64,000 bases of DNA from an uncultured Acidimicrobiaceae bacterium (GCA_963839925.1 CAWIWV010000001.1:630094-694093); one strand, 5' to 3'; positions 1 to 27,378 are shown, counted from the stretch's first letter. A program made the numbers and translations. The notes: generated from the sequence alone by a model not told the origin.

Positions 1-879
1 GCGAACACGATCGCCATCGCCTTCCCCTTCTACACCGCAAGCCTCAAGTCGAACAGTGTGTTCGCAGCCAACCAGTGCCCAGGCAGCAGCGATCCTGACC
101 CGGGTCTCAATCCGCAGTCGCCCACGGCTGCGCGACTGGCAGTCCTCGTGAAGAGCGCGCAAGCGCACGGCCTCCATGTCCTGCTCCGACCGGAGCTGAA
201 CGAGGTCGATCTGCGACCAAAGTGGCGAGGGGTGATCGCTCCCACCAACACGACGGCTTGGTTCGCCAGCTATCAGAGCATGATGAAGCCGTACCTGCAG
301 ATGGCACAGACCGAGAAGGTCACCCGGTTCGACATCTCGGTCGAGCTGAGCAGCATGGCCGGCGCAAAGCAGTGGGCCTCGGCGATCACCGCTGACCGGA
401 AGCTGTATACCGGACAACTCGTCTTCGACGGCGATTGGGTCGGTCCGGGGTCCGGAAGCGTCGGCTTGGCACCGCACGCCAACACTGCGTGGGCCGTGGA
501 CACCTATCCGAAGGTCACCAAGTCGACTCCCTCGTCGTCGGTCTCCCAGTTGTTGACCCAGTGGAACTCGCTGCTGGCGGCACAGAAGTTCCCGGTTGCG
601 GACACCAGCGCCACCATCGACGAGGTGGGGATCATCGCTCAGGACGGCGCCTATGCGAATCCTTCGACCTTCTCCGGTGGAACCTTCGACCCGAAGATCC
701 AAGCGAACTGGTTCACCGCTGCTTGCGATTTCATGAAGGCCCACAAGTTCGCTGGCATCTACTTCTGGGGTCCCGAGTTCTCCTACAACTCGGGCAACCT
801 GCCGGCCACGAGCGACTCGACTCAGCCCACGGAACTCCAGCCGCAGGCACAATCGGCCATCAAGGCCTGCTTCAAATGA
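1..879 (+). CDS. Glycoside-hydrolase-like domain protein, 3' fragment (5' end outside the window); copy 1 of a 4-member paralog family
   Basis: Frame 1 is open from nt 1 (ANTIAIAFPFYTASL...) to the stop at 877-879. It is colinear with 3508-4614(-), 6863-7831(+) and 11770-12728(-). Shared blocks: GANS[VI].I.FP, LLRPE[LI][NQ]E, QMAQ...V.RF.I.[VI]EL, [IL]DE[VA]GI, QANWFTAAC, GIYFWG, ELQP...AI[KR]ACF[KQ]. Confidence 0.8.
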   Translation, partial: ANTIAIAFPFYTASLKSNSVFAANQCPGSSDPDPGLNPQSPTAARLAVLVKSAQAHGLHVLLRPELNEVDLRPKWRGVIAPTNTTAWFASYQSMMKPYLQMAQTEKVTRFDISVELSSMAGAKQWASAITADRKLYTGQLVFDGDWVGPGSGSVGLAPHANTAWAVDTYPKVTKSTPSSSVSQLLTQWNSLLAAQKFPVADTSATIDEVGIIAQDGAYANPSTFSGGTFDPKIQANWFTAACDFMKAHKFAGIYFWGPEFSYNSGNLPATSDSTQPTELQPQAQSAIKACFK

Positions 880-977: not shown

Positions 978-3530
978 ATGAGAACTGAAGTTGACGGGCG
1001 GGTGTGGTCGGTCCGGCGACGACGCCCCGTGTTGACCGCGAGTGCCATCGTGCTGGCGGTCATCCTCGTGCAGTCGGTTGGGCGAACGTCTGCGGCCTCC
1101 GCTGAACCCGCCCTCTCCCAATCGGACGCCACGGCCTCGTGCCCCTGGGTCAGCTCCACCGCCCCGATCCCGCAACGGGTCGCCGAGGTGATGGACAAGA
1201 TGACCGAGACGCAGGAACTCCAACTGGTCGACGGAACCAAGGGCAACTACGTCTTCAACCTGCCTGCGATCCCGACGCTGTGTATTCCCGCGCTCAACAT
1301 GGAGGACGGACCCCAGGGGGTGGGCGACTATCTCACCGGGGCGACCCAGCTGCCGTCAGCAGTGGCTGCCGCCTCCACCTGGAACACCGGTCTGGAGAAG
1401 CAGTATGGCTCCGTCGTTGGTGCCGAGGACATGGGCAAAGGCGTCAACGTGGACCTCGGCCCGACCGTCAACATCGTGCGCGATCCACGTTGGGGAAGGG
1501 CATTCGAGAGTTACGGCGAGGACCCCTACCTGAGCGGGCAGATGGCCGCCGCCTACATCGGAGGCCTCCAGAGCAAACGGGTCATCGCCCAGGTCAAGCA
1601 CTATGCGGTCTACAACAACGAGACCCACAGGAACACGCTCGCCGATGACGATGTCATCACCGAGCGAACCGAACAGGAGATCTACCTGCCGGCCTTCCAG
1701 GCCGCCGTCAACGCCGGGGCGGGCTCGGTGATGTGCGCGTACAGTCAGCCCAACGGTGTGCCGGCGTGTGAGAACTCCTACCTGCTCGGAGCACTCGACA
1801 GGCAGATGGGATTCGGGGGATTCGTCGGCTCGGACTGGGGTGCGACACCAAACAACCCGGCGGCGGCCATCGAGGCGGGCGAAGACGTCGACATGCCGGG
1901 GAACTCCTATTTCGGCTCCGTGTTGCAGGCCGACATTCCGAGCCAAGTCCCGCAGGCCTTTCTCGACGACGCGGTCGAGCGCATCCTGACCGAACTGTTC
2001 CGGGCAGGACTGATGGGCAGCGCCACGACAGGGTCGCCGGGCGCGAACGTGACCAGCGCGGCCCACGTCGCAACAGCGACCCAGGTCGCCGAAGAGGGAA
2101 CGGTCCTGCTCAAGAACGCAGACAGTCTGTTGCCGTTGCAGTCGTCCAGTGTCGGCTCGATTGCGGTGATCGGTCGCAACGCCGACACCCATTCCGATGA
2201 GTGCGGGACCGGCTCGAGTGGGAACCTCGATTCGGCCTATCCCTACTCCGGTGGCGGGAGCGCGTGCGTCGAGGGCTCGGTCAACGGCTCGGGGAGGGAG
2301 ATCACCCCACTCGCCGGCATCAAGGCGGCTGCACCGAACGCGCATGTCAGCTATCGCAGCGGCTCCCAGCTCTCGGCTGCAGTGGCGGCGGCCAAGGCCG
2401 CCAAGGTGGCGGTCGTTTTCGCGGGTTACCCCGAGAGCGAGTGCTCGCTGACCACCTACGCCGTCTGTTCGGACCTCACCACGATCGACCTGGGGCAGGC
2501 AGAGGACAAGCTTATTGACGCGGTGGCCGCCGCACAACCGAACACGATCGTCGTGCTGAACACAGGATCCGCGGTCACCATGCCCTGGCTCCGCCACGTC
2601 CGTGGCGTGCTCGAACAGTGGTACCCGGGTCAGGTCGACGGAGCTGCCCTGGCGGCACTCCTCTTCGGGAGTGTCGACCCGTCGGGCCACCTGCCGGTGA
2701 CGTTCCCGACCAGTCTGTCCGAAGTTCCCGCCAAGACCCCCCAGCAATTTCCGGGGACGGGGAACGCCGTCGACTACAGCGAGGGCATCGACGTCGGGTA
2801 TCGGTGGTACCAGTCCAAGGGCCTGGCTCCGCTGTTCCCGTTCGGGTTCGGGCTCTCGTACACCAAGTTCGCCTTTTCGAATCTGTCGGTCAGCGCCTTC
2901 AACGCTTCCCGGGTCGCGACGGTCACCGCAACCGTCACCAACGTCGGTTCGGTCTCCGGGTCAGACGTGGCCCAGCTGTATGTGGGTGATCCGGCCAGTA
3001 CCGGGGAACCGCCGTGGCAGCTGAAAGGATTTCGACGGGTGAGCCTGGCACCGGGTGCCTCCACATCGGTCACCTTCACCGTTCCCGTCCACGACCTCAC
3101 CTCGTGGGGAGGTCCTGGGGCCGGCGGTTATCCCCCGGCTGCCGCAGCCACGGATACCGATGGGTGGGAGGCGCCTGCCGGGTCCTACCCCGTCGGTGTC
3201 GGCGACTCCTCGGCCAACCTGCCCCTCCGGGCATCGCTGGCGTTGCCCTCGGCAGTCGGTCCCGACACGGTGAAGGTGCCGACGCAGAGAAGCCAGACAT
3301 CGGTGATCGGAGCCGCGGTCCTGCTCCCGATCAAAGCGGTCGACTCGGCGCCGGGTCAGCAGCTTCGCTATGCCGCCAGCGGGTTGCCGGGCGGGTTGTC
3401 CATCGACCCGTCGACCGGCACCATCACCGGGACGCCGTTCCATGCGGGTGTGAGCACGGTGACGGTCACCGCGATCGATCAGAATGCATTCGAAGGCGGT
3501 GCCTCGTTCAGCTGGACGATCGTTCCTTGA
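978..3530 (+). CDS. Glycoside hydrolase family 3 (beta-glucosidase-like) with C-terminal Ig-like module
   Basis: 850 aa. The N-terminus has RRRRP plus a hydrophobic signal. GH3 blocks present: GVNVDLGPTVNIVRDPRWGRAFESYGEDPYL and the nucleophile context GFVGSDWGA. The C-terminal LPGGLSIDPSTGTITGTP motif is typical of putative-Ig/cadherin-like modules. Confidence 0.9.
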   Translation: MRTEVDGRVWSVRRRRPVLTASAIVLAVILVQSVGRTSAASAEPALSQSDATASCPWVSSTAPIPQRVAEVMDKMTETQELQLVDGTKGNYVFNLPAIPTLCIPALNMEDGPQGVGDYLTGATQLPSAVAAASTWNTGLEKQYGSVVGAEDMGKGVNVDLGPTVNIVRDPRWGRAFESYGEDPYLSGQMAAAYIGGLQSKRVIAQVKHYAVYNNETHRNTLADDDVITERTEQEIYLPAFQAAVNAGAGSVMCAYSQPNGVPACENSYLLGALDRQMGFGGFVGSDWGATPNNPAAAIEAGEDVDMPGNSYFGSVLQADIPSQVPQAFLDDAVERILTELFRAGLMGSATTGSPGANVTSAAHVATATQVAEEGTVLLKNADSLLPLQSSSVGSIAVIGRNADTHSDECGTGSSGNLDSAYPYSGGGSACVEGSVNGSGREITPLAGIKAAAPNAHVSYRSGSQLSAAVAAAKAAKVAVVFAGYPESECSLTTYAVCSDLTTIDLGQAEDKLIDAVAAAQPNTIVVLNTGSAVTMPWLRHVRGVLEQWYPGQVDGAALAALLFGSVDPSGHLPVTFPTSLSEVPAKTPQQFPGTGNAVDYSEGIDVGYRWYQSKGLAPLFPFGFGLSYTKFAFSNLSVSAFNASRVATVTATVTNVGSVSGSDVAQLYVGDPASTGEPPWQLKGFRRVSLAPGASTSVTFTVPVHDLTSWGGPGAGGYPPAAAATDTDGWEAPAGSYPVGVGDSSANLPLRASLALPSAVGPDTVKVPTQRSQTSVIGAAVLLPIKAVDSAPGQQLRYAASGLPGGLSIDPSTGTITGTPFHAGVSTVTVTAIDQNAFEGGASFSWTIVP

Positions 3531-4614
3531 AACACGCCCGGATTGCGGCTTGTGTCTGCGGTTGCAATTCGGTCGGTTGGTTCGGTGAAGGGACGGTCAA
3601 GAGCTTGCCGAAGTTGTACGAGAACTCAGGGCCCCAGAAGTAGATCCCAGCGAACTGATGTTCTTTCATGAACTGGCACGCAGCGGTGAACCAGTTCGCC
3701 TGCACTGTCTGGTTGAAGGTTCCCGGCGCGTACGTCGAAGGATTGACGTACGCGCCATCGACAGAACTGATCCCTGCTTCATCGATGGTGATGTCCGAGT
3801 CCGCAAGTGGGAAGCTTTGGTCGGAGAGCGTTTTGTCCCACGCCGCAACCAGCTGGGTGACCGATCCCGACGGCGTCGACTTGGGGATCTTTGGATAGGT
3901 GTCGACGGCGAAGGTCGTGTGCGGATGCGGGACGACTCCCACGCTTCCCCGGCCAGGTCCCACCCAGTCTGCGTCGAACACCAAGTTGAAGTGGTAGAAG
4001 TTCTTCGCGAACGCGATGGTGGAGGCCCATTCTTTGGAGTTGCCCAGGCTGGCCAGCTCGACGGCGATGTCGAACCGGGCCACCTTGTAGCGCTGTGCCA
4101 TCTGCAGGTAGGGCTTCATCATCTGGTCATAGCTCGCGAACCACGCCGATCTGCTGGTCGGAGTGATGGCTCCCCGCCATTTGGGTCTGAGGACGTCTTC
4201 GTTGAGCTCGGGGCGAAGCAGGACGAAGAGGTGGTGGGTCTGGGCTGCCCGGACCAGCACCGCCAGGCGTGCCGCGGTCGGCGACTGGGGAGTGAGCTCA
4301 GGATCGGGGTCGATGCTGCGGGGGCAGTGATTGGCAGCGAAGATCTGATTGGATGTCAGGCCTGTGGTGTAAAAGGGAAAGGCGATGGCAACCGAGTTGG
4401 CCCCCAGGGATTTGACGCTCGTCATCTGGTTGTTCGCCTCGGCCTGCCAGACTGCCGGCGGCACACAGTTGTCGGTGACGTAGATGTTGATCCCGTACTG
4501 GACCGGACCCGTCTTGGGCGTCGGCGCGATCAGCAGCACGACGACGGTGACCGCAACGGCGATGGCCACGACCGCACCGGCCATCGCGAGGTAGGACCGG
4601 CGGGTGCTGGGCAT
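3508..4614 (-). CDS. Membrane-anchored glycoside-hydrolase-like domain protein (paralog copy 2)
   Basis: ATG at 4614 (MPSTRRSYLAMAGAVVAIAVAVTVVVLLIA, a basic N-terminus plus one TM); an upstream in-frame ATG at 4644 is also possible. The rest aligns with the other three copies (QYGINIYVTDNC ... LLRPELNED ... TIDEAGIS ... GIYFWGPEFSYN ... AIRACFK). Confidence 0.8.
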   Translation of the reverse strand: MPSTRRSYLAMAGAVVAIAVAVTVVVLLIAPTPKTGPVQYGINIYVTDNCVPPAVWQAEANNQMTSVKSLGANSVAIAFPFYTTGLTSNQIFAANHCPRSIDPDPELTPQSPTAARLAVLVRAAQTHHLFVLLRPELNEDVLRPKWRGAITPTSRSAWFASYDQMMKPYLQMAQRYKVARFDIAVELASLGNSKEWASTIAFAKNFYHFNLVFDADWVGPGRGSVGVVPHPHTTFAVDTYPKIPKSTPSGSVTQLVAAWDKTLSDQSFPLADSDITIDEAGISSVDGAYVNPSTYAPGTFNQTVQANWFTAACQFMKEHQFAGIYFWGPEFSYNFGKLLTVPSPNQPTELQPQTQAAIRACFKERSSS

Positions 4615-4776
4615 GCGTAGCCAGGTCACCCGCCATCCCTCCATTCGGAACCGACCTCCGGGTCACCCCGGTCGTCGAACTCTTCGCGCACGTCGGTCCA
4701 GATGACCGTCAAGATACCCGGTGTCGGCCGGATCGCGGCGTAGCCCCCGCGGCATGTTGGCCGTTCTGGCACCGAA

Positions 4777-4921: not shown

Positions 4922-7834
4922 ATGCAGTTCTCACCGGGGTGGGGAGAGACTTTCTTCGGAAAGAGAACCTGGATCGGCCGTTCATCAAAATTGATGATGG
5001 CCGTGTTGGCATTGGCCGCACTGGTGCTGGTGGGGGCGGCGCCGGCGGGCGCGACCGGCTGCACTCCCGGCCCCGGCGCAGAGTTGGCCGGCTGCAACTT
5101 CACCGGATCCAGCATGTACGGCGTCGATCTCGCAGGCGCGGACCTGACCGGTGCGACGCTGACCGGCGCCAACCTGACCGATGCCAACCTCGACCAGGCC
5201 ACCCTGACCAATGTGACGGGCACGTCGGCAGACCTGCAGGGCGCCGCGATCACCGACGCCGACCTGACCAACGCAAACTTCGGCGGCGGGCTCTTCGACG
5301 GTGCCGATCTCCAGGGATCGACCATCACCGATAGTCAGTTCACCGGGTCCGACTTCACCGGTGTGCAATCCGGAGGAGTGACCGGAAGCGGATACACCCT
5401 TCCCTCCAACTGGTCGTTGGCGGGCGGGTACCTTGCCGGGCCGCGCGCGAATCTCACCAATGCAGATCTGTCGGCGACCGATCTGACGGGTGCAGATCTC
5501 GCCTCCGCCTATCTGACCGGAACCAACCTGACGGGGACCGATCTCAGTGGCGCCAACCTGACTGGAATCATCACCGGCGGAGTCACCGGCACGCCCTCGA
5601 ATCTTCCGGCCAACTGGTCCCTCGTGAACGGGTACCTGATCGGGCCCTCTGCCTTTCTCTACGGCGCCGACCTCACCAACGCCGACCTCAATGGTGTCGA
5701 CGCGGCCGGTGCCAACATCGAAGGCGCAAACCTGACGGGTGCCGACCTCACGGGAGCAAACTTCACCAACGCCGACGGGATCAACTCGACGCTCACCGGG
5801 GCCATCTTGAGCTCCGCCAACCTGACCGGTTCCGACTTGGACGATGTGACGTCCGGCAGCATCACCGGTGTCCCCGCGAGCTTGCCCTCGTCGAGCTGGC
5901 AGCTCGACAGTGGGTACCTCGCCGGTCCCTATGCCAATCTGGCGAACGCCGACCTGGCCGACGCAAACCTCGCCAACAGCAATCTCACCAAGGCCATTCT
6001 GACCGGCGCCAACCTGACCGGCGCCAGTCTCATGTCGTCGAATCTCAGCTTTTCCGTGATGGGAACTGCGAATCTCACGGATGCCTCGTTTACCAGCGCC
6101 ACGGTGACCGGCGCCACGCTGACCGGTGCCACGGTGTCGGGTGCAGTCTTCACGTCCGCGAGCCTCGCCGGCGTGATCACCGGGGGGCTCGTCGGAAGGC
6201 CGGGGCCGCTTCCCCTGGGCTGGCGGGTCGACGACGGCTACCTCATCGGTCCCTACGCCTCTCTCGTCAAGGCCAATCTTCAGGGTGCCAACCTCTCGAA
6301 GACCGTGTTCGTCGGTGCGAACGCCACCGGAGCGAACCTGAAGTCCGCCACCCTGACCGGCTCCAACCTCGCGTCGGCAGTGTTCAGCGGTGCCACGCTC
6401 ACCGGAGTCACCTCCGGGGGCATCACCGGCAAGCCCCAGTCATTGCCGACCGGATGGTCCCTCGAGGGTGGTTATCTCGTCGGGCCGGGCGCAAACCTCG
6501 CCAAGGCCAATCTGCAGAAGGCCAATCTCTCGAAGGCCGATCTCCAAGGTGCGAACGCCACCGGGGCGAACCTGAAGTCCAGCACCCTGACCGGCGCCAA
6601 CCTCGCGTCAGCGCAGTTGAGTGGCGCCGCGCTCGCCGGGGTGGTCTCCGGGGGGATCACCGGAAAGCCGCAATCACTCCCAGCCGGTTGGGAGTTGGTC
6701 AAGGGGGTCCTGCGGCTGATCCCCAAGTCGAAGGCGAAGCCGGCAATCAAGACTGTTTCCAAGACGAAGCCATCCTCGAGAGCCAAAGCCATTCTCTTGT
6801 CCTCGTCCTCCGAGTCCAGTCACGTGTCCGGGGCTGAGACCGCAAAGACGACCACGACGCCGCAGTACGGGATCGACGTCTACGCCCCCGACAACTGCGC
6901 CTCATCGTCTGTGTGGCAGAGCGAGGCCACCAACACGATGGAGGGGTTCAAGTCGCTCGGCGCGAACAGCGTCGGCATCACCTTTCCGATCTACACAGCG
7001 GATTGGAACTCGAATTCGGTCTTCACCGCCGATCTGTGCAACGAGCCCTCCGCGACTCCAGTACCGCTCCAGACTCCCAGCCCGGGCCGAGTCGCCGTTC
7101 TGGTGCACGCCGCCCAGCTGGCGGGTCTCCATGTCCTCCTTCGCCCCGAAATTCAGGAGTCGAATCTCTACCTCACCGGTCACTGGCGGGGCACGCTCGC
7201 ACCGACCGACAAGACCGCGTGGTTCCAGAGCTACCAATCCGTGCTCCAGCCCTATCTGCAGATGGCCCAGGCGAACGGCGTGACTCGATTCAGTATCGCG
7301 ATCGAGCTGGTCAGTCTGGGTTCGTCGAGCACACAGTGGAAGGCGACCATCGCCGGCGCGCAACAGCTCTACAAGGGCCAGCTGGTATTCGCCGCGAGCT
7401 GGGAAGCGGGATACGGGGTGTCCTACGCCAACACGGCGGCAGCAGAGGATGCCTATCCGGACCTGACCCAGGCAGGTTCCTCGTGGTCGGTGAGCCAACT
7501 GCTCGCCGCGTGGAACGCGAACTTGAAGACCGTCCACTTTCCGGTGGCCGCCACCAGCGAGACCATCGACGAGGTGGGGATCCTCGCACTCGACGGTGCC
7601 TATGGGCTTCCCTGTTGTTACTCCGCCCCGAACGAGGTCTTCAACCAGAACATCCAGGCCAACTGGTTCACCGCCGCCTGTAACTTCGTGAAGACCAACA
7701 AGCTGACGGGCATCTACTTTTGGGGTCCCTTCCTCGCGTTCAACTCTGGAAACCTCCTGACCCAGCCGAACTCTTCGAGCCCGGCCGAGCTCCAACCAGC
7801 CGGCCAGGCCGCGATTCGTGCCTGCTTCAAATAG
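4922..7834 (+). CDS. Secreted pentapeptide-repeat array fused to the glycoside-hydrolase-like domain (paralog copy 3)
   Basis: 970-aa ORF; an alternative start at ATG 4994 gives MMAVLALAALVLVGAAPAGA. About 600 aa of A[DN]L..-type pentapeptide repeats (ADLTGATLTGANLTDANLDQATL...), then a K/S/T/P linker, then the GH-like domain from QYGIDVY (6863) to ACFK. Confidence 0.85.
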   Translation: MQFSPGWGETFFGKRTWIGRSSKLMMAVLALAALVLVGAAPAGATGCTPGPGAELAGCNFTGSSMYGVDLAGADLTGATLTGANLTDANLDQATLTNVTGTSADLQGAAITDADLTNANFGGGLFDGADLQGSTITDSQFTGSDFTGVQSGGVTGSGYTLPSNWSLAGGYLAGPRANLTNADLSATDLTGADLASAYLTGTNLTGTDLSGANLTGIITGGVTGTPSNLPANWSLVNGYLIGPSAFLYGADLTNADLNGVDAAGANIEGANLTGADLTGANFTNADGINSTLTGAILSSANLTGSDLDDVTSGSITGVPASLPSSSWQLDSGYLAGPYANLANADLADANLANSNLTKAILTGANLTGASLMSSNLSFSVMGTANLTDASFTSATVTGATLTGATVSGAVFTSASLAGVITGGLVGRPGPLPLGWRVDDGYLIGPYASLVKANLQGANLSKTVFVGANATGANLKSATLTGSNLASAVFSGATLTGVTSGGITGKPQSLPTGWSLEGGYLVGPGANLAKANLQKANLSKADLQGANATGANLKSSTLTGANLASAQLSGAALAGVVSGGITGKPQSLPAGWELVKGVLRLIPKSKAKPAIKTVSKTKPSSRAKAILLSSSSESSHVSGAETAKTTTTPQYGIDVYAPDNCASSSVWQSEATNTMEGFKSLGANSVGITFPIYTADWNSNSVFTADLCNEPSATPVPLQTPSPGRVAVLVHAAQLAGLHVLLRPEIQESNLYLTGHWRGTLAPTDKTAWFQSYQSVLQPYLQMAQANGVTRFSIAIELVSLGSSSTQWKATIAGAQQLYKGQLVFAASWEAGYGVSYANTAAAEDAYPDLTQAGSSWSVSQLLAAWNANLKTVHFPVAATSETIDEVGILALDGAYGLPCCYSAPNEVFNQNIQANWFTAACNFVKTNKLTGIYFWGPFLAFNSGNLLTQPNSSSPAELQPAGQAAIRACFK
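6272..6700 (+). repeat. Internal tandem duplication (period 234 nt = 78 codons) inside the pentapeptide-repeat gene
   Basis: The unit starting at 6272 (gccaatcttcagggtgccaacctctcgaag...) recurs at 6506 (gccaatctgcagaaggccaatctctcgaag...). The two peptide copies are ANLQGANLSK..GANATGANLKSATLTGSNLASA...SGGITGKPQSLPTGWSL and ANLQKANLSK..GANATGANLKSSTLTGANLASA...SGGITGKPQSLPAGWEL. Confidence 0.75.
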
Positions 7835-8954
7835 CGGCCGGCAACAGCTCGACAAGGGAGGGGTTCCCGAGCTCAGCGTGGTGGTCGCCTCCTACAACGG
7901 AGCGCGCCACCTGCCCGACTGCCTGGTCAGCCTCTGCGAACAAGAGGGTTGCCCCGGGCTGGAGATCATCGTCGTCGACGACGGATCGACGGACGACACC
8001 TGGAAGCAGATCGAGAAGTTCGATGTCCAAGGGGTCCGGCTTCCCGAGAACCGGGGTCTGTCGGCGGCCCGCAACGCAGGGCTTGCCCGAGCCACCGGGA
8101 CGGTGGTCGCGTTCGTGGACGACGACGAGGTCGCTCCCCCCGGCTGGGCCGCCGGGATCGTTTCGTTCTGGAAGAGCGCTCCGGCCGGAGTAGCCGTCCT
8201 CTGCGGGTTCGCCTCCCCTCTGGAAGTCGACACCTTCAACCGTCGGTTCGCCAGGTGGCACCGACCCTTCGTGCCGGTCGACCAGCTGCCCGACGGCGCC
8301 GGCCAGATCGTCGGACGTTTCAGCCGGTACCTCCGTTGGCTGTGGCACTCGACTCCTGGTTCCGGTCGACCGGTGGCGAGGACCGCCGGGGGGGTGATGT
8401 CGATACGGACCGCCGACTTGATCGAACTCGGAGGGTTCGCCGAAGACATCCGCTTCGGGGGCGAGGACGACCAGCTGTCCCTGCGCGTGCTGGAACGGTA
8501 CGGACCGAATTCGATCTGGTTCGATCCATCGATCGAGCTCCTCCACGATTTCGAGACGTCGTTCCGCTCCACACTGCGTCGATTCAGGCTCTACGGGTTG
8601 GGACAGGCCCGTTTGCAGGCAACGGAAGGCGGCTTCCCTCCCCTGCAACCGATGCCGGTGCTCTGCTTGACGGCGGCGATCGGGGTCGGTGTGATGCGGC
8701 CGCGTTGGGCGATCGGTGCCGCGCTGGCTGTTCCCTACGCACTGACCTTCCCGCGATTGATCCCCGCGCTGCGACGTGACGGATTGGTCTCGTTGGCTTA
8801 CCCGGTCGCGTTACTCTCGCTGGAGGCTGCGGCAGACGTCGGATTGATGCGTGGCCTGCTCGGGGGTGGCGGCCCGCGCCCGGGCGATCGGTCAGCCGGT
8901 TCGCCGGGTGACCGGACCGGCCTGCAAGGTCTGGACGGCCAATTGGATGGGTGA
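7818..8954 (+). CDS. Family 2 glycosyltransferase with C-terminal membrane segments
   Basis: SVVVASYNGARHLPDCL, IIVVDDGSTDDT and FVDDDE (DxD) motifs, plus a hydrophobic C-terminal third. The start is uncertain: GTG 7818 overlaps the upstream stop, and in-frame GTGs at 7878/7881 are alternatives. Confidence 0.85.
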   Translation: MPASNSGRQQLDKGGVPELSVVVASYNGARHLPDCLVSLCEQEGCPGLEIIVVDDGSTDDTWKQIEKFDVQGVRLPENRGLSAARNAGLARATGTVVAFVDDDEVAPPGWAAGIVSFWKSAPAGVAVLCGFASPLEVDTFNRRFARWHRPFVPVDQLPDGAGQIVGRFSRYLRWLWHSTPGSGRPVARTAGGVMSIRTADLIELGGFAEDIRFGGEDDQLSLRVLERYGPNSIWFDPSIELLHDFETSFRSTLRRFRLYGLGQARLQATEGGFPPLQPMPVLCLTAAIGVGVMRPRWAIGAALAVPYALTFPRLIPALRRDGLVSLAYPVALLSLEAAADVGLMRGLLGGGGPRPGDRSAGSPGDRTGLQGLDGQLDG

Positions 8955-9399
8955 CGAGGACACAGTAGGGGGGAGTGCAAAGCGACGGCCGGCTGTGGGT
9001 CGCAACCGAGCGGTTGCGATCGTCGGGACGTGTCTCGTCATCTTGCTGCTTGCCTACGGGCTGCTGTCCACATCGGTTGTCAACGGAATCGCGAGCGCGG
9101 TGGGTGGGCGACCGAACACCTCGTTCGTCGCGCTCTCCTTCGCCGATCCAAGAGCCGTCTCCGCATACGTCGTCAAGGGGACGCCTGTCGAGGTGGCGGT
9201 GTCCAACCAGTCACCGCGCAGCCGGACATTCGACTGGTCGACGTCGAGCTCCGGCGTGACCCTCCAGCGCGGTTCTCTCGCGGTGCCTGGAGACTCGACG
9301 CGGACTTTCGTCGTGCAAACCGAACAAGTCCAACCGAGCAACTGGTTCTCGGTGAAGCTGGATGGAACCTCCCTCGTCATCACGACCTGGGTCGTCTAG
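8947..9399 (+). CDS. Small membrane-anchored protein of unknown function
   Basis: ATG 8947 overlaps the GT2 stop by 8 nt. A basic N-terminus and one TM (AVAIVGTCLVILLLAYGLL) are followed by a beta-rich ectodomain of about 110 aa. No family recognised. Confidence 0.6.
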   Translation: MGDEDTVGGSAKRRPAVGRNRAVAIVGTCLVILLLAYGLLSTSVVNGIASAVGGRPNTSFVALSFADPRAVSAYVVKGTPVEVAVSNQSPRSRTFDWSTSSSGVTLQRGSLAVPGDSTRTFVVQTEQVQPSNWFSVKLDGTSLVITTWVV

Positions 9400-9414: not shown

Positions 9415-11759
9415 ATGACGACCGAAACGGGACTCCTCGCCTCTGCATCTCCAGGACCCACCGCCGACGCCCGCTCGAAGGAAGCGAGGGGAGCGTCGCT
9501 CCCGGTCTGGACAGCCGCTGCAGCCACCCTGACCGCGTTCGCCATGCTCGTCCCGGCGGAACCCGGGGCGAAGGCACTCGCCACCATCGGCATCATCGCG
9601 GTGCCCGGGGCGACGATCATCAGCTTGCTGGGTCTGATGCCGAAGGGACTGACCCAGCGCATCTTCTTCACGCTGGTCACCGGGGTCGCCTTCTTGATGG
9701 GTGTCGGGGTGGTCTGCGCATTGGGCCTGCGGCTCGTCGGAATCGGGCACCCACTCACCCGAGGACCGATGTTGGTCGTCTGGCTGCTGGTGCTCGCCGG
9801 TTCGGTGCTTCTACCCGCGCGAACCCGACGCGACCCTCTGCGCCTGACGCTGGATGGCGTCCGCCCAGCACACTGCTGGTGGTTGGTCGGGCTGAGCACA
9901 CTTCCCGCCCTCGCGCTGGCCGGTGCGGCCCGCCTCAACGCGGGACACGGCGGAGCGCTCGCCGTCTCGGTGTGCGTTGCCTGTGTCGCGGTGCTCTTGT
10001 TGGTGCTGGTCACGACCGCGTGGAACCGGGCCGTGCTTCCAGCCGGACCCGCGATCTTCATGTCGGTCGTCGCCCTGGTCTGGCAGGAGACGGCCCGCGG
10101 CAATTGGCTCTTCGGGAGCGACATCCAGCACGAGTACTTCGTGGCGAACCAGGCCGCGACGACCGGGCAGTACTCGCTCGCCGTCCACGGGGACCCCTAC
10201 CGAATCATGCTGTCGTTGACCGTGCTCCCCGCGCAGCTCCATGTGCTCACCTCGGCATCGGTGGAGATGTTGTTGCAGCTCCTGCCGGCAGTCATCCTCG
10301 GCCTGGTGGTCATCGGGGGCCTGTGCATCTTCCGCTCGCTGCTGTCCGAAGGGTTGGCGGTGGGATTCACCCTGTTGTTCGTCGGGGTCAACTCGGCCCT
10401 CTTGACCGAGCTCCCCTCCGTCACCCGCCAGTGCTACGGGCTGCTGATGTTCGTGGCGATGCTCGTGCTGGTGGTCGCTCCGCCCCTTCCGATCCGGCGG
10501 GCTCAAGCCCTCTTCGTCGCCCTGGGCGTCGCCATGGTGCTCGCGCACTACTCGACCGCATTCATCGGCATCCCGGTCCTGGTGGTCGGGTGGGTTTCGC
10601 GGTGTGGTTCTCACCGGCTACCGCCGAGGACAACTCCGCCGTCGACGAGGCAGCCTCGAGGTCGCTGATCGTCCGGAGAGATCGAACGCGTCGTCGCCGA
10701 GGGAGAACCGTGGTGATCGGAGTCCTCGCTGCGGTCCTGGTGGGGGCTGTGGTTGCCAGCACTCGAGGCCAGCTCTCCAGCCTGCGCAAGTCGATCAGCT
10801 CGAATGGGCTGGGGATCCTCCCGGGTCATGGAGGGCTGCTCAGCCGCTGGATCCACGGGGCAGGCTCCAAGACGATCAGTGCAACCGCTCTGCAGAACTA
10901 CGACCAGACCCACACCACCGATCGGATCGCACACTATGTCGACCCCCGGTCGCTGACCTACCACCTGACCAACGCGTCTGCTCCGAAGAAGCCGTCGGTG
11001 CACGTGTTTGCTCCCACCTCGTCGGCAGTGGTGACGATCGCGAACGAACTGCTCCTCGTCGCCTCGGTGATCGCAGTCGTGGTCTGCGTCGTGTGGCTCT
11101 TCCGCCGGACCCACCATGTCCGGCCCGAGCTGGTCGGCTTGGCAGTCGGTGCAGTCGCTCTCGATGCGGTCGCGCGACTCTCCGGTTCGGTCGCGCAGAG
11201 CTTCGGACCCGAACGGGTGCAGGCGCAACTCGGGATTCTGCTGCTCATTCCACTGGCGCTGGTCATCGTGTCCGCGACCTGGGGCTCGTCGCGCACGCTC
11301 CGATGCGGCATCATCGTTTTGGCGTCGATCGAACTTGCGAGCACCACCGGATTGTTCGCCACGGCGTTCGGGGGCGTTCCCCCCGCCAGCCTCTCGACCT
11401 ACGGCGAGAACGTCGAGCGGTTCGTGGTGACCACTCCGAGTCTCTACACCGCCCAATGGGTGGTGGATCACGTCGGGACGCGGGTGATCCAGGCGGACCC
11501 CTATGGTTCGTTGGTCCTGTCCGACTTCACCGGTGGGCAGCGCTCATCGACCTTCGACTCGGTCGACCCGAGGGCGGTGTACCGGTTTGCGTGGATCTAC
11601 GCGACCCCGGCCAACATCGTCGACGGGCGCGCCCGAGGGTCGGCAAACGGCAACGTCGGAGTGTTCGTCTTCCCGCAAACCCTCTACGACCGGACCCGAC
11701 CGGTCCTCTTCACGACGGGTACAACCAGGGTCTACGGGCAGGTTGCGACGGACAACTGA
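9415..11759 (+). pseudogene. Large polytopic membrane protein with C-terminal soluble domain; frame broken near 10585-10600 (or two overlapping genes)
   Basis: GAGGGA Shine-Dalgarno (SD) sequence upstream of ATG 9415. Frame 1 reads as many TM helices up to ...AHYSTAFIGIPVLVVGW, then turns into an Arg/Pro-rich tail. Frame 0 continues VGFAVWFSPATAEDN... with five more TM helices and a soluble C-terminus to 11759. The span is 2345 nt (3n+2). Confidence 0.55.
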
Positions 11760-11769: not shown

Positions 11770-14161
11770 TCATTGGAAACAGGAGCGGATCGCCGTCTGG
11801 GTTGCCGGTTGGAAAGCCCAGGGGTTCTGAGGGTCTGGCTGGGTGAGGAGGTTTCCGGAGTTGAAGGTGAGAAACGCTCCCCAAAAATAGATTCCCGCCA
11901 GTTTCTCGGCCTTGAGGAACTGGCAGGCAGTGGTGATCCACTGCGCCTGAATCGTCTGGTTGAAGGTGGAGCCGGGAGTGCTGTAGCAGCACGAGTCCCG
12001 GTAGGCCCCGTCGAGCGCGCTGATGCCGACCTCGTCCAAGCTGACATCGGACTTGGCCGTCGGGAAGGGTAGGTACCTGAGCGTGATTTCCCACTGTTTC
12101 AGCGAGCGCGGCAACCGAGGTCGAGGGTGTTGCGTTGGGGACGTCCGGGTAGGCATCCTCTCCCGTGGCGACCCCGCTGAAGACCTTGCCGGGGTTCAAC
12201 CAGTTGGAGTCGAAGACGAGCTTTCCTTTGAAGATTGCTCGCGCGGCGGCGATGTTCGTGTTCCAGAGTGGGCTGCTCGTGAGGCTTGCGAGCTCCACCG
12301 CGATGCTGAAGCGGGTGACTCCGTTCGCTTGCGCCATCTCGAGGTAGGGCCTGAGCATCTGGTTGTAGCTCGCGAACCAGGCGGTGGTGTTGGTCGGAGC
12401 GATCGTTCCTCTCCATCCGACGAACAGATTGGCCTCTTGCAGCTCCGGGCGGATCAGGACTTGGAGCCCCGCTGCCTCGGCCGCCTGCACCACGACAGCG
12501 AGACGGGCGGGGCTCGGTGTCTGCAGCGGGACGAGAGTCCCGGGCTGGTTGCAGACGTTCGCGGTAAAGACGGTGTTCGAAGTGGGGCTCGGGGTGAAGA
12601 AGGGAATGGTGATGCCGACGCTGTTCGCCCCCAGTGATTTGATGCTCGCCATCTCGTTGGTTGCGTTCGTCTGCCACTCGGCGGGGGACGAGCAGTTGTC
12701 GATCGTGTAGACGTCGATCCCGTACTGGGGAGGAGTCGAGGCGGCTGCGGTCGTCTTCTTCGGGGGAGCTGTCGAAGCAGTCGTGACTTTGGCAGCGGTG
12801 TGTTTGACGTTGGTGGTGGGGGGCGGCCCCCCGGGTGCCCAAGGCGAGACCGGAGCCCAGGTGGATCCTGGCGGAGGAGTGATCGGTGACGAGCTCACCG
12901 CCTTTCCGGTCGGGATCTTCCGGAGAATACCGAGCACCAGCTGCCAGCCACTCGGCAGCGAATACGGCGTGCCGGTGATCTTTCCGGAGGTCACACCGTT
13001 GAGCGTCGCGCCGCTCAAGAACGCGGCCATCAGATAAGCGGCATGGAGATTGGCGTCCGCCAGGTTGGCGTCCTGGACGTTGGCGCCGTGCAGGTTGGCG
13101 CTCGAGAGGTTCGCCCTACTCAGGTTGGCGTTCTGAAGGTTGGCGTAGGGACCGACCAGGTAGCCGTCGTCGAGCTGCCAGTTGGAAGGGGTGGCGTGGG
13201 GAAGGCTGGCGGGGACGCCGGTGATTCCACCGGAGGTCACCCTGGCAAGCTGTGCCCCGCTCAATGTTGTGCCTGCCACGTTGGTCCCGACCATCGACAC
13301 GTTGATCGCATTCGTGTTGGACAGGTTGGCGCCGGCCAGGTTGGCGCCCGACAGGTCGGCCCCCTCCATGTTGGCCCCGGCCGCATCGTCCCCGCTCAGG
13401 TCCGCGCCGGCCAGGTTGGCGTTGTAGAGGAAGGCGCCCGGCCCGATCAGGTAGCCGTTGACGACGGTCCAGTTGGCCGGGAGTGCGGCCGGTGTGCCGG
13501 TGAGGCCACTCGTGATGGCCCCGGCGAGGTTCGCGCCGGTGAGGATGGCTCCATCCAGGTCAGCTCCGCTCAGGGTCGCCGAAGCAAGGTCGACGCCGGT
13601 CAAGTCGACCCCGGAGAGATCGGCGTTCGTGAGATCTGCACCCGGTCCGATCAGAAAGCCCCCGTTGAGCGACCAGTTGGTCGGCAGGGTGAGATCGCCA
13701 CCAGTGACTTGTGAGGACTGCACGCCGTTGAAGTCTGACCCGGTGAAGGTGGCGCCGGTCATCGTCGACTCGTCGACGTTGGCGCCGTCGAAGAATCCGT
13801 TCGGGATGTTGGCCTGGGTCAGATCAGCTGCGAACAGTTGGGCGCCCTGGAGATCGACCGACGATCCTTGGACATCGGTGAGGTTGGCCTGGTTGAGGTT
13901 GGCGTCGGTCAGGTTCGCCTGGGAGAGATTCGCGCCGGTCAGATCCGCACCCGACAGGTTGGCGCCGTAGAGGTTGGCGTTCGCAAGATTGCAGCCCGCG
14001 AGCTCGGCCCCCGGACCCGGGACGCAGCCGTCCGCGCCCGCTCGAACCGGGTTCGGTAATGTCAGCGCGAGCACCATTCCGACGGCGACCACCGACGCCG
14101 TTCGGCGCACCGCTGAACGAAAGCCCCTCGTGGGCCAACCCCCCAAGGTCCGCATCCTCAA
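11770..14161 (-). pseudogene. Secreted pentapeptide-repeat array fused to the GH-like domain (paralog copy 4), interrupted by a +1 frameshift at about 12097-12099
   Basis: Signal peptide MRMRTLGGW...VVAVGMVLALTLPNPVRAGA, about 400 aa of pentapeptide repeats, then the GH-like domain. The true C-terminus (SLDEVGISALDGAY...GIYFWGAFLTFNSGNL...AIRSCFQ) is in the frame of ORF 11770-12156. The span is 2392 nt (3n+1). Confidence 0.8.
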
Positions 14162-14227: not shown

Positions 14228-15640
14228 TCAGGAGCGGCCCGACACCCTCACCCGTGGACACACGGGACCGAACGAACGCGACCTGAAGCACCCGGTCCAT
14301 ACGCCCGCCCCGTAGCAGAGGTCGTCCACGACCGAGGCCAGCGTCCAGCGGACCGGGTCGAGACCCGGACGGTGCTTCCACCAGTCGACCAGGGGCGGAG
14401 CGAGGAGCAGGACTGCCGCTGCCCTCCGTGCACGTCCACCCCGGAGCAGCGCCATCACGAGGACGGGTCCGGCAAGCATGGTCGAAGCCCGGCCCATGCC
14501 GACGATCGCCCAGCAAGGGCTCGCCACGTTCCAACGAACGATCGCGCCCAGAGTGATGCCGCGACCGCGGATCCGCACACCGGTCGATGCCGTCGAAGCA
14601 GCGACCAAACCCATCGCGGTGCGGTACCGGCCGCTCAGCGCGGCGAGGGCGGCGGCTGCAGGCAACAGGCGGACGTCAACCGGTGCAAGACGGCCGGCGT
14701 GGCGCTTCGAGAGCGGAGCCGCTGAGGTGCCATACCGGAAACGACGGGCGAGGGTGCCCGGCCAGGTTCGGGGCTCCTCGTGAAACACGATGCTCGACGG
14801 TTCGTAGCGGACTCGCCATCCTGCGCCCGCCAGCCGCCAGACGAGGTCCACGTCCTCGCCGACCCGCAGTCGGGAATCGAATCCGCCCGCCGAATCAAAC
14901 GCTTCCCTCCGAATCACCAATGCTGCGGACGGAACGTAGCGAACACTCCTGATCGGATCCACCTCACTCGGTTCGGGTCCCATGTCGAGTGCCGAGTGCG
15001 CGTCGGCGAACCGGGTGAGGGCCCCCGGGTCCGCATCCGGGGTGGCCCGATCCGGCCGAACCCGCGGTGCCACAGCGCCCATGTCAGGGTCTTCGAACAT
15101 CCACACCAGCTGCTCGAGCCATCCGTCGGTCACCCGGCAGTCGGCGTCGACGAAGGCGACCAGATCGGTGGTGACGACGTCGACCGCCTGGTTCCGAGCC
15201 GCAGCCGGTCCACCGTTGATCGGTCGACGAATCAGCTGCGCCCGATGTCGATCGCAGACCGCCGCGACCGCGTCCGGGTCGTCGGAGGCGTCGTCGACCA
15301 CCACCACCGGCGTCGTCGTCCCCAGCGACGCAAGGCAACGGTCGAGTGCCTCGGCATGGTTGTGGACCGGCACGACGACCGTGAGGTCGGTGATTTCCGT
15401 GTTGCCGTTCACCACCTCGGGACGACGGGGGTGTGCCATGCCGGCATCGACCAGGCGCTGCGCGAGCTGACGTGATCCGTCGTTCGCCTCTTCACCGGCG
15501 AGCAGCGCGTCGAGCGTCGCCACACCTTGCGGTGTCAAGGTGATGAGCCGCCCGGGGGACCCGCCCACCAGCACGGTTCCGTTGCGGAAGGTGCGCGCCG
15601 ACCGGTCGAGCACCAACCCGAACCGCTCAGGAAGGGTCAC
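14228..15640 (-). CDS. mftF: Mycofactocin system glycosyltransferase
   Basis: 470 aa. The N-terminus LPERFGLVLDRSARTFRNGTVLVGGSPGRLITLTPQG is followed by a GT2 core (VVVPVHNH..., VVVVDDASDD, FVDADC). It is the last gene of the mft operon; its GTG start overlaps the upstream stop (GTGA at 15637-15640). Confidence 0.85.
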   Translation of the reverse strand: MTLPERFGLVLDRSARTFRNGTVLVGGSPGRLITLTPQGVATLDALLAGEEANDGSRQLAQRLVDAGMAHPRRPEVVNGNTEITDLTVVVPVHNHAEALDRCLASLGTTTPVVVVDDASDDPDAVAAVCDRHRAQLIRRPINGGPAAARNQAVDVVTTDLVAFVDADCRVTDGWLEQLVWMFEDPDMGAVAPRVRPDRATPDADPGALTRFADAHSALDMGPEPSEVDPIRSVRYVPSAALVIRREAFDSAGGFDSRLRVGEDVDLVWRLAGAGWRVRYEPSSIVFHEEPRTWPGTLARRFRYGTSAAPLSKRHAGRLAPVDVRLLPAAAALAALSGRYRTAMGLVAASTASTGVRIRGRGITLGAIVRWNVASPCWAIVGMGRASTMLAGPVLVMALLRGGRARRAAAVLLLAPPLVDWWKHRPGLDPVRWTLASVVDDLCYGAGVWTGCFRSRSFGPVCPRVRVSGRS

Positions 15641-18444: not shown

Positions 18445-18464
18445 GCGCTCCTCGAAGGAGATGC

Positions 18465-18549: not shown

Positions 18550-18558
18550 TGTGCTCGC

Positions 18559-22925: not shown

Positions 22926-22964
22926 CGGGTCAACCCACCCTCACCGAACTGCTTCGGACATGGT

Positions 22965-25781: not shown

Positions 25782-25784
25782 CGA

Positions 25785-27331: not shown

Positions 27332-27378
27332 CAGCGCGCGTTGGGGGTCGATCGCCGGAGCGGGCAGGGCGGATGGCG

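Follow-up and report, generated by a model that had tools for sequence, protein, structure and literature searches.

An uncultured Acidimicrobiaceae bacterium encodes a 970-aa protein in which a long array of pentapeptide repeats is fused to a glycosidase-like domain. The gene occupies positions 4922..7834 (+ strand, stop codon included) of the window, i.e., the whole stretch of 64,000 nucleotides that was analyzed. According to the ORF list, the translation and Pfam, the protein consists, from the N- to the C-terminus, of a signal-like N-terminus, a Cys-x10-Cys cap, pentapeptide repeats, a linker and a GH113-like domain. The pentapeptide-repeat/GH113 fusion is real, rare and built from known parts. 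It is apparently also new to the literature: a full-text search found this fusion described nowhere, and no source assigns a function to it. Two claims of the first-pass annotation held up, namely that a signal-bearing repeat array is joined by a linker to a hydrolase-like domain (ORF, Pfam PF00805 and PF22612) and that this architecture is apparently undescribed. As to its role, we lean towards a secreted glycanase which acts on a cell-surface glycan and is carried by the repeat solenoid, probably a rigid stalk or scaffold.

Results

Fusion gene, export and N-terminal cap

The orthologue P0002 is 82% identical to the fusion protein with end-to-end coverage. The gene call for the same protein in the protein collection (P0001) starts 24 codons downstream and yields 946 aa. 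The fusion protein has eight cysteines in total, several of them invariant, in paired positions.

The signal-like N-terminus (aa 1-44, 4922..5053, + strand) was delimited by hydropathy and by conservation among orthologues. Here a basic n-region (K14, R15, R20, K23) is combined with a hydrophobic core whose best 15-residue Kyte-Doolittle mean, from aa 24, is 2.81, and the sequence A-G-A directly precedes T45-G46-C47. This arrangement of basic n-region, hydrophobic core and AxA is kept in the orthologues. A Sec-type signal peptide would be cleaved at or near A-G-A, and the mature protein would open with a two-cysteine cap, probably disulfide-bonded. The orthologue alignment defines this cap as GCxPGPxAxLxGC (5057..5101, + strand) with C47 and C58, both invariant in 13 orthologues. 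At the C-terminal end of the array there is no cysteine; the next one is C659, inside the GH domain. A search of the fusion protein for a surface anchor gave no sortase motif, and a lipobox (A-T-G-C47) matches the permissive pattern only; reading it as a lipobox is further weakened because it clashes with the conserved C47/C58 pair. We infer from the conserved signal-like N-terminus that the protein is exported and extracytoplasmic. Also counted towards this location were the Pro/Thr/Ser-rich linker, the paired cysteines, the fn3, CarboxypepD_reg, SdrD_B and MBG domains borne by relatives and the precedent of secreted repeat proteins with Cys pairs at the helix ends (PMC12864828).

The pentapeptide-repeat solenoid

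The repeats extend over 555 aa (aa 46-600, 5057..6721, + strand). PF00805 matches the fusion protein in 13 stretches with E=4.9e-82 (269 bits, cut-off 20.2), and PF13599 and PF13576 also match the array. In the best register the central residue is hydrophobic in 64 of the 69 units of the six canonical segments. The repeats predicted in the first-pass annotation are therefore confirmed by Pfam, its length of about 600 aa being somewhat too high. The array is acidic (pI 4.05).

In the full AF2 model the solenoid has a pLDDT of about 85-95, and a fragment spanning two of the motifs described below (aa 46-308) reached a pLDDT of 96.7 and a pTM of 0.88. This fragment has a strand every 5 residues, with longer strands recurring every 20 residues. 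The best Foldseek matches to the solenoid are solved pentapeptide-repeat structures (probability 1.0). The global TM values against straight pentapeptide-repeat structures are poor (0.26-0.51), which may reflect kinks or an artefact of aligning repeats. As modelled, the solenoid is a right-handed quadrilateral beta-helix with 20 residues per coil; about 27 coils at an assumed rise of about 4.8 A each would give a rod of roughly 13 nm.

A 28-residue motif punctuates the repeats

Six times the array carries a 28-aa motif with the consensus G[VI]xSGGITGxPxxLPxxWxLxxGYLxGP. All six copies lie on the + strand: motif 1 at aa 147-175 (5360..5446, GVQSGGVTGSGYTLPSNWSLAGGYLAGPR), motif 2 at aa 215-243 (5564..5650), motif 3 at aa 309-337 (5846..5932), which is one residue longer (LPSSSW), motif 4 at aa 417-445 (6170..6256), motif 5 at aa 495-523 (6404..6490) and motif 6 at aa 573-599 (6638..6718). 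The core LPx(2-4)Wx[LV]xxG[YFV]L occurs six times in the region and in none of 10,000 shuffles of it. All six Trp of the mature repeat region lie inside the motifs, as do all Pro except those of the N-terminal cap, and the Tyr/Phe position of the motif is 85% conserved. Motif 6 ends the solenoid and would therefore act as a C-terminal cap; in every orthologue the array ends with the same motif and the linker follows immediately.

The first-pass annotation had correctly counted six of these elements, and four in the paralog, and had described them as inserts of about 25 aa. The high-confidence AF2 model contradicts the latter: the 5-residue beat of strands carries on through the first 15 residues of the motif, and only bulges of +2 and +1 residues flank the strands formed by WxL and GYL. 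In the model the degenerate pentapeptides GVxSG, GITGx and PxxLP would stay in register and be followed by the two bulged strands; the bulges would therefore shift the register by 3 residues per motif. The motif thus reads as a non-canonical coil which adds 3 residues, with no looped-out insert.

A regular higher-order module, which had also been proposed, was not borne out. The module lengths are uneven (68, 94, 108, 78 and 78 aa); modules 5 and 6, of 78 aa each, are 71% identical in protein and DNA alike. Among 120 relatives, 249 of 426 Trp-to-Trp spacings equal 5n+3 residues without any fixed period, and these spacings are spread about evenly over the four mod-20 classes, so that whole 20-residue coils are not favoured. 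This even spread argues against motifs aligned on one face of the beta-helix, an arrangement which the first-pass annotation had suggested looking for.

The motif is not specific to the fusion protein. Its profile finds 1,737 protein clusters at E<=1e-3, most of them without a GH domain; a single protein can carry as many as 41 copies, and the proteins reach lengths of 4,802 aa. We infer that it has a structural function throughout a class of long extracytoplasmic pentapeptide-repeat proteins.

Linker and GH113-like domain

The linker (aa 601-647, 6722..6862, + strand) is basic and rich in Lys, Ser, Thr and Pro (pI 10.5) and has an AF2 pLDDT below 50. It would be flexible and couple the rod to the C-terminal domain (aa 648-970, 6863..7831, + strand), a GH113-like domain of clan GH-A with six cysteines, identified by PF22612 and profile alignment and presumably a (beta/alpha)8 fold with both putative catalytic Glu present. 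PF22612 (GH113) matches aa 668-934 with E=9e-16 (58.5 bits, cut-off 27; model positions 16-266 of 289). A family profile of 26 sequences finds GH113 structures with E=2e-15 to 1e-10; for the beta-mannanases AaManA (3civ/4cd6), BaMan113A (7dv7) and AxMan113A (5ylh) the values are 2e-15 to 1e-11, BaMan113A being the best at E=2e-15. Foldseek against GH113 structures gave a probability of 1.0; the AF2 model of the GH domain itself is of low confidence (pLDDT mostly below 60).

All of 26 homologues keep two Glu residues, E795 (IAIELVS, 7304-7306, + strand) and E884 (TIDEVGI, 7571-7573, + strand). In the alignment the counterpart of E795 in BaMan113A is the Glu of IGCEM, replaced by Ala in the variants 7dvz/7dw8, and that in AaManA is E151 (GCEMT), which we take to be the acid/base of that enzyme. 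By this alignment E795 is the putative acid/base at the end of strand beta-4. E884 is the putative nucleophile, expected at the end of strand beta-7. Alignments to most GH113 structures end before it, and only a weak match (E=1.2) pairs its DAYP...xEVGI with DGYP...ITETGWP of the solved catalytic domain 8akp, i.e., with the Glu of WITETGWP; ITETGWP is a nucleophile motif of clan GH-A. Because of the membership in clan GH-A the domain is predicted to be a retaining enzyme that cuts a beta-linked glycan. It is only 14-22% identical to characterised GH113 enzymes, and substrate specificity is therefore not transferable from them.

Paralog and distribution

The window contains a paralogous fusion gene (11773..14161, - strand), found by Pfam, motif search and frame analysis, with four motifs starting at aa 146, 214, about 311 and 389. 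Its frame is shifted by one base, apparently a single extra base near 12100-12138; past this point the frame stays open to a normal ...CFQ stop at 11773, and intact orthologues exist (P0005, 785 aa; P0006, 769 aa). The frameshifted paralog noted in the first pass is thus confirmed.

When a collection of 5.8 billion proteins is clustered at 90% identity, the GH113 fusion accounts for about 18 clusters. Wherever the source is named, it is a MAG of Acidimicrobiales or Acidimicrobiaceae, and the habitat is soil; the other clusters stem from metagenome samples. We found the fusion at 15 genome loci in at least 5 MAGs. The GH113-like subfamily is restricted to Actinomycetota (Acidimicrobiales, Actinoplanes, Catenulispora, Actinospica).

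Gene neighbourhood

Upstream of the fusion gene, a standalone GH113-like gene (1..876, + strand) is truncated by the window edge. Next comes a GH3 glycosidase (978..3530, + strand) which has Fn3-like and He_PIG domains as well as a signal-like N-terminus rich in Arg. A second standalone GH113-like paralog (3526..4644, - strand), whose N-terminus is hydrophobic, is oriented divergently to the fusion gene. Directly 3′ of the fusion gene follows a GT2 glycosyltransferase (7818..8954, + strand), then a small protein (8938..9399, + strand; about 154 aa) that has a single transmembrane anchor and no family match and a polytopic membrane protein (9415..11759, + strand) which is frameshifted near 10596 and has 781 aa in a relative. 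Distant homologues of the latter carry DUF2206 (PF09971) and one carries PMT_2 (PF13231), and it is therefore probably a GT-C-type glycosyltransferase.

A conserved context, in which the fusion gene is convergent with a 750-780-aa membrane protein and the small protein and adjoins a standalone GH113 gene, was counted in the loci L001, L002, L003/L021, L008, L012 and L022 (44-82% identity). At L017, a more distant locus, the membrane protein and GT2 are accompanied by a gene with GH113 only, and several paralogs in other genomes are without GT2 or membrane-protein neighbours.

The paralog follows mftF on the same strand at a distance of 67 bp. MftF scores 394 bits (cut-off 280), and the genes for MftE, MftC, MftR and mycofactocin-coupled SDR, OYE and ETF proteins occupy 14.2-28.3 kb. 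The order mftE-SDR-mftF-fusion gene recurs in L001, L002 and L022. In L003/L021 mftE and the SDR gene lie upstream with no mftF match, and in L012 part of mftF is matched at the edge of the locus.

Discussion

Comparison with known systems

The first-pass annotation held that the characterised pentapeptide-repeat proteins known to it (Qnr/MfpA-type DNA mimics, cyanobacterial Rfr/HglK proteins) are not extracellular enzyme fusions. This contrast is overstated in view of the secreted YjbI, the lumenal Rfr32 and TL15 and the enzyme fusion NleL. Caulobacter YjbI is secreted, has 183 residues and carries Cys pairs flanking its beta-helix (PMC12864828). As predicted for the fusion protein, YjbI/PerA of Caulobacter crescentus, Rfr32 (2g0y) and Arabidopsis TL15 (3n90) combine an export signal with an extracytoplasmic quadrilateral beta-helix, and the YjbI type shares the conserved Cys pair at a helix end. 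JGI labels members of the fusion family "YjbI with pentapeptide repeats". YjbI-type proteins, however, are small and single-domain, without punctuation motif or enzyme, whereas the fusion has 555 aa of repeats, six motifs and a glycosidase. To judge from the sequence, the fusion protein resembles this type without being a plain member of it, having the Cys pair at the N-terminal end only.

The effectors NleL and SopA (3naw, 3sqv) are likewise secreted and join a pentapeptide-repeat-like beta-helix to a catalytic domain. They reach host cells through type III secretion, their helix is short and unpunctuated, and their catalytic part, a HECT-like E3 ligase, has no homology to that of the fusion. 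Conversely, none of the characterised GH113 enzymes has a pentapeptide-repeat array, and the extra conserved cysteines are the fusion subfamily's own. By analogy only, the system may be likened to glycan-synthesis clusters with a dedicated hydrolase, such as BcsA/BcsZ, PgaC/PgaB and Pel/PelA: here too a secreted glycosidase is encoded beside a glycosyltransferase and a membrane component, in an arrangement that recurs across genomes. The families differ, however, being here a generic GT2, a protein of DUF2206/GT-C-like type and 3-5 copies of GH113-like enzymes.

Alternative explanations

That the fusion is an artefact of assembly or gene calling joining two genes is contradicted by the data, and we give it practically no credence. 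The window does have frameshifts in two adjacent genes, no more than 2 kb apart, and related loci from long-read MAGs contain many fragmented genes. Yet the architecture is uninterrupted in the clusters counted above, which come from independent samples and sources (JGI, ENA, NCBI, Logan), it recurs at the genome loci and in the MAGs listed there, and every copy runs colinearly from the last motif through the linker into the GH domain. Almost as improbable is the chance fusion of an enzyme to a DNA mimic of the Qnr/MfpA type or to some other cytoplasmic repeat protein that binds proteins. Qnr, MfpA and AlbG, which act as dimeric DNA mimics, do share repeat and fold with the array, the array is acidic, and there are partial matches to the Qnr and MfpA models. 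These matches stay far below the NCBIfam cut-offs (Qnr 95.6 against 240, MfpA 76.8 against 360, Qnr subfamilies 45-85 against 425-500), and Qnr/MfpA/AlbG proteins are cytoplasmic and of about 200 aa, against the 555 aa of the array with its signal-like N-terminus, conserved Cys pair, secreted-type linker and glycosidase partner. Short loops interrupt the helices of Qnr and AlbG, but these hold no repeated conserved motif.

A more serious rival, still unlikely in our view, is that the solenoid is a carbohydrate-binding module in which Trp and Tyr/Phe of the motifs form aromatic platforms at intervals along the rod, bind a polysaccharide chain multivalently and feed it to the GH113-like domain. 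Many secreted actinobacterial glycanases carry such a module N-terminal to a linker and catalytic domain, just where the array sits before its Pro/Thr/Ser-type linker. The confinement of Trp to the motifs and the conserved Tyr/Phe position fit this, and by register the motif Tyr would take the outward-pointing i-1 position. Against it, the motif occurs in about 1,700 clusters, most without a carbohydrate-active domain, so that a structural role fits better, and motifs not bound to one face are awkward for a single linear binding groove. Considerably more far-fetched is that the fusion proteins act on a beta-1,4-glucan made by the adjacent MftF. They would then trim or recycle the oligoglucose tail of mycofactocin or a similar glucan that is exported, and the order mftE-SDR-mftF-fusion gene would mark a functional unit. 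The product of MftF is a chain of beta-1,4-glucan, which is digestible by cellulases (PMC9679996). GH113 is a beta-1,4-glycanase family, a GH3 gene is close by, and the paralog follows mftF in the recurrent order given above. However, mycofactocin is a cytoplasmic redox cofactor, at odds with the signal-like N-terminus and conserved Cys pairs, the main fusion gene (4922-7834) does not adjoin mftF, and in more distant loci the two lie 2.6-3 kb apart. The synteny is limited to one family of related genomes, so that shared ancestry may explain it.

A proposed secreted glycanase on a stalk

The reading that we favour is the secreted glycanase acting on a cell-surface glycan. The solenoid would most likely be a rigid stalk or scaffold taking the place of the carbohydrate-binding or spacer module of other secreted glycanases, although the search described above gave no clear anchor for such a stalk. 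The substrate would most likely be a glycan of the cell envelope or the extracellular space, synthesised by the co-conserved GT2, DUF2206/GT-C-like protein and small membrane-anchored protein, and the standalone GH113-like enzymes and the secreted GH3 would attack the same polymer. The paralogs of other genomes that are without these neighbours count against this link. The neighbourhood could also be a polysaccharide-degradation cluster instead of one for glycan remodelling.

Beyond this, it is conceivable, if doubtful, that the punctuated solenoid represents a new class of extracytoplasmic module, a rigid rod whose Trp/Tyr coils bind a glycan or cell-wall polymer. In these Acidimicrobiales it would hold the GH113-like glycanase in position at a surface glycan that a DUF2206-type GT-C enzyme makes. 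The bolder variant, in which the enzyme acts on the beta-1,4-glucan of MftF, would, if true, link mycofactocin-type glycosylation to an exported glycan.

Architecture of the fusion protein

The open reading frame at 4922-7834 (+) translates into a protein of 970 aa, and comparison with Pfam showed that both halves of the protein come from known families. Pentapeptide repeats (PF00805) were matched with E=4.9e-82 over 13 stretches, the models PF13599 and PF13576 matched as well, and at the C-terminus the GH113 model PF22612 covers aa 668-934 (E=9e-16, 58.5 bits with a cut-off of 27). A signal-like N-terminus (aa 1-44) is followed by the repeat array (aa 46-600), which begins at aa 46 with a two-Cys cap (GCTPGPGAELAGC), by a basic Lys/Ser/Thr/Pro linker (aa 601-647, pI 10.5) and by the GH113-like domain (aa 648-970). 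The length of the protein and the succession of repeats, linker and hydrolase-like domain are hence as stated in the first-pass annotation. An antifreeze or ice-binding reading was rejected; the Pfam model CfAFP reached 24.3 bits with a cut-off of 25.9 and no single stretch passing, and a low-complexity resemblance between beta-solenoids accounts for this match.

At the N-terminus a basic n-region precedes a hydrophobic core, and an AxA lies two to four residues before the first Cys; this pattern is kept in the orthologues. A signal-like N-terminus, as noted earlier, is thus present, its use in export being a prediction. The gene call in the protein collection (P0001, 946 aa) starts 24 codons 3′ of the first ATG and leaves out window 4922-4993. 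The basic n-region before the core is present only in the longer form, whose extension recurs in the 82%-identical orthologue P0002 and in P0003, another protein of the collection. The sequence A-T-G-C47 fits only a permissive lipobox pattern of the PROSITE type, and a lipoprotein reading would fit poorly because the invariant C47/C58 pair and the G-A-D-G-C of the paralogs conflict with it. The protein contains eight Cys at conserved, paired-looking positions, its linker is of the secreted type, and N-termini resembling a signal or an anchor are also encoded by the GH3 gene and the standalone GH113 genes nearby. For Caulobacter YjbI it has been shown experimentally that a pentapeptide-repeat protein with helix-flanking Cys pairs is secreted (PMC12864828).

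The paralog at 11773-14161 (-) is built in the same way, and its intact orthologues measure 769 and 785 aa. Its frame is shifted near 12100-12138 by an apparent single extra G in CTCGCTG and then stays open to the normal C-terminus. The gene of the neighbouring membrane protein is likewise frameshifted near 10596 in a G/T-rich run (GGGTGGGTTT), with the downstream frame intact. Since the two frameshifts are only 1.5 kb apart, both in otherwise well-conserved genes, and since the related loci from long-read MAGs are full of fragmented genes, a sequencing error is as likely as a (very recent) pseudogenisation.

The Trp motif as a predicted coil of the solenoid

The Trp punctuation motif begins at aa 147, 215, 309, 417, 495 and 573 of the fusion protein and occurs four times in the paralog, both counts agreeing with those reported before. 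Its core pattern was found in 0 of 10,000 shuffles of the array region. All six Trp of the mature array lie inside motifs, as do all Pro with the exception of the N-terminal cap. An AlphaFold2 model of the full-length protein from a 16-sequence alignment gave a pLDDT of 85-95 over aa 50-600 and below 50 in the linker, the GH domain being modelled poorly. A model of aa 46-308, which spans two motifs, reached a pLDDT of 96.7 and a pTM of 0.88, and this part is therefore predicted to behave as one rigid body. For the whole array (aa 46-600) a rod length of about 13 nm would be expected. In both models the beat of one strand per five residues runs unbroken across GVxSG, GITGx and PxxLP; two additional residues then precede the WxL strand, the GYL strand comes five residues on, and after one more residue (the Pro of GP) the A(N/D)Lxx repeats resume. 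The element had been described as an insert of 25 aa. Because the five-residue beat continues through it with extra residues and nothing is looped out, the most apt description is that of a non-canonical coil of 28 residues (5 x 5 + 3). The array of every orthologue closes with the last copy, which abuts the linker and thus also serves as C-terminal cap. A Foldseek search with the aa 46-308 model retrieved solved pentapeptide-repeat structures at probability 1.0 with a global TM of only 0.26-0.51, a value which is ambiguous and could reflect kinks in the modelled rod or an artefact of repeat alignment. For the motif element itself no Pfam or NCBIfam model was reported on the proteins scanned.

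The modules of the fusion protein measure 68, 94, 108, 78 and 78 aa. In a direct comparison modules 5 and 6, of 78 aa each, were 71% identical in protein and DNA alike, and these last two modules (window 6257-6724) are a tandem duplication, the only recognisable one in the protein. Tandem Repeats Finder reported the 15-bp pentapeptide period only and did not detect the 234-bp module. Close relatives carry 6, 5, 4 or 3 motifs, and the length of the array therefore evolves by gain and loss of modules.

The 120 best homologues contain 572 motif copies, and 249 of their 426 Trp-to-Trp spacings follow the series 43, 48, 53, 58 up to 108, that is 5n+3. The mod-20 classes 3, 8, 13 and 18 are used about equally (51, 66, 75 and 57 spacings), so that no whole-coil constraint acts on the spacing. 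What remains of the regular higher-order module proposed earlier is therefore a register rule with no fixed superperiod, and the spacing census argues against an arrangement of the motifs on one face of the predicted helix.

We compared a 40-column profile of the motif with 1.84 billion cluster representatives and obtained 1,737 proteins at E<=1e-3, 1,087 at E<=1e-10 and 424 at E<=1e-30. These proteins carry up to 41 copies, the longest one listed having 4,802 aa. Four giant pentapeptide-repeat proteins from metagenomic contigs outside the window (P0240, P0261, P0269 and P0297; 4,000-4,800 aa) contain 32-41 copies each and would form extremely long solenoids. Partner domains in the motif class are fn3, CarboxypepD_reg, SdrD_B and MBG, while NHL and GDSL lipase matched more weakly, at scores that did not exceed the Pfam cut-off; where a source is named, it is an Acidimicrobiales, Solirubrobacterales or Micrococcales MAG.

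The GH113-like domain

A profile of 26 domain sequences matched the GH113 beta-mannanases BaMan113A, AaManA and AxMan113A with E=2e-15 to 1e-10. The invariant E795 (IAIELVS) is aligned to E151 of AaManA and, in BaMan113A, to the Glu of IGCEM, a residue that was changed to Ala in deposited variants. A second invariant residue is E884 (TIDEVGI). The search for the nucleophile, in which a profile built from the C-terminal half of this domain was run against the PDB, aligned E884 only weakly (E=1.2) to WITETGWP of another solved catalytic domain. As the identity to characterised enzymes is only 14-22%, the fold and a retaining mechanism are likely and the substrate is not transferable.

The domain has 178 homologues at E<=1e-5. 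The subfamily is mostly standalone (350-400 aa) and is found in Acidimicrobiales, Actinoplanes, Catenulispora and Actinospica; a few members carry the NCBI name GH113. A paper on a hydrolase of the Actinoplanes sporangium matrix turned out to be irrelevant. About 18 clusters show the fusion to pentapeptide repeats, and a scan of 185,579 species-representative genomes located it solely in MAGs from Danish soils and a peat bog, classified as Acidimicrobiaceae, Acidimicrobiales or unclassified Actinomycetota, with several paralogs per genome. The domain is strongly amplified in this region: the window has four GH113-like copies within 14 kb, two of them fused and two standalone (1-876 (+) and 3526-4644 (-)). 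A related locus, L001 (82% identical), has five (2213-4480 among their coordinates) with an IS110 transposase between copies, which is absent from the window.

A conserved glycan-related neighbourhood

In L001 the gene order is GH113, GH113, IS110, GH3, GH113 (-) and fusion gene, then a GT2 gene, a 154-aa anchored protein, a 781-aa polytopic membrane protein and the second fusion gene (-), followed by mftF (-), a mycofactocin-coupled SDR and mftE. The core arrangement, a fusion gene convergent with the genes of the membrane protein and the small protein and a standalone GH113 gene nearby, is kept in five further loci at 44-60% identity; in a more distant locus (L017) the membrane protein and GT2 are accompanied by a gene with GH113 alone. 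Relatives with 44-82% identity have mft genes upstream of the fusion gene; in the five further loci these are mftE, SDR and mftF in L002 and L022 and only mftE and SDR in L003/L021, while in L012 only mftF is matched, in part and at the edge of the locus, and L008 has none.

The membrane protein (9415-11759 (+); L001 14485-16830) is always paired with the 154-aa single-pass protein. It has at least 12 hydrophobic segments, and neither protein gave a significant match in Pfam, NCBIfam or the PDB sequences. Distant homologues of the membrane protein carry DUF2206 and in one case PMT_2, which points to a GT-C-type glycosyltransferase; the protein may belong to such a family, perhaps an unrecognised one. 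The GH3 glycosidase (978-3530 (+)) ends in Fn3-like and He_PIG (putative Ig) domains, and its Arg-rich (RRRR), signal-like N-terminus could be a Tat signal; the gene call in the relative starts at a position equivalent to 1191.

Adjoining the glycan cluster is a large mycofactocin system (14228-28306) with MftF (14228-15640 (-)), the mycofactocin-coupled SDR (15637-16458 (-)), MftE (16458-17189 (-)), MftC (25785-27110 (-)) and MftR (27500-28306 (+)). It also includes an mft-associated ETF beta subunit, OYE_2, SDR_subfam_1, OYE_1 and an ORF that joins an ETF-alpha-like part (below the model cut-off) to a FixC-like part. The frameshifted paralog shares its strand with mftF and starts 67 bp downstream of it.

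Possible functions

We lean, by a small degree, towards a secreted modular glycanase in which the GH113-like domain would be borne by a rigid solenoid stalk or scaffold and the motif would be a structural coil common to the whole class. The gene context suggests a module that builds an extracytoplasmic glycan and has GH113-like enzymes of its own. Exopolysaccharide systems contain synthase/hydrolase pairs, and by analogy the GH113-like enzymes would trim or remodel the glycan made by their neighbours. Instead of being structural, the Trp/Tyr coils might bind glycans in the manner of a CBM, a reading made attractive by the position of the module and its aromatic residues; we consider it rather unlikely, and the presence of the motif in proteins without carbohydrate-active domains weakens it.

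The mycofactocin cofactor is cytoplasmic, which makes it improbable that the fusion enzymes are linked to the beta-1,4-glucan made by MftF, a link that the conserved adjacency of mftF suggests. Since the beta-1,4-glucan tail of mycofactocin is made by MftF (PMC9679996), one can conceive of a functional tie between MftF and the genes of the GH113-like and GH3 enzymes. The array is most unlikely to be a Qnr-like DNA mimic, the scores for that family being far below the cut-offs, and an artefact of assembly can practically be dismissed as the source of the fusion given its many independent copies. Nothing in the current understanding is overturned by this case; we regard it as a useful lead and not as a surprise of principle.

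Known and new features

The premise that characterised pentapeptide-repeat proteins are neither extracellular nor linked to enzymes was too strong. Secreted pentapeptide-repeat proteins are already known; the known effector NleL combines a repeat helix with an enzyme, as the fusion protein does. A full-text literature search returned no description of the fusion or of the motif, in line with the earlier claim of an undescribed architecture, and the glycoside hydrolase fusion, the 28-residue coil with its 5n+3 spacing and the conserved neighbourhood that contains a DUF2206-like membrane protein appear undescribed in the libraries and literature searched.

The 28-residue Trp motif and the 5n+3 rule mark out about 1,700 protein clusters as a subclass, and the motif could be used for annotation and for the design of beta-solenoid proteins. 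The GH113-like subfamily, standalone and fused, is an uncharacterised actinobacterial branch of the mannanase family. Pentapeptide-repeat proteins abound and few have a known function; those that do are almost all cytoplasmic topoisomerase protectors or small secreted proteins. A long and probably exported array, covalently attached to an enzyme of recognisable family and surrounded by conserved glycan-related genes, offers a concrete, testable setting for the function of such solenoids, for which spacer, scaffold and glycan binder are candidate roles outside the cytoplasm.
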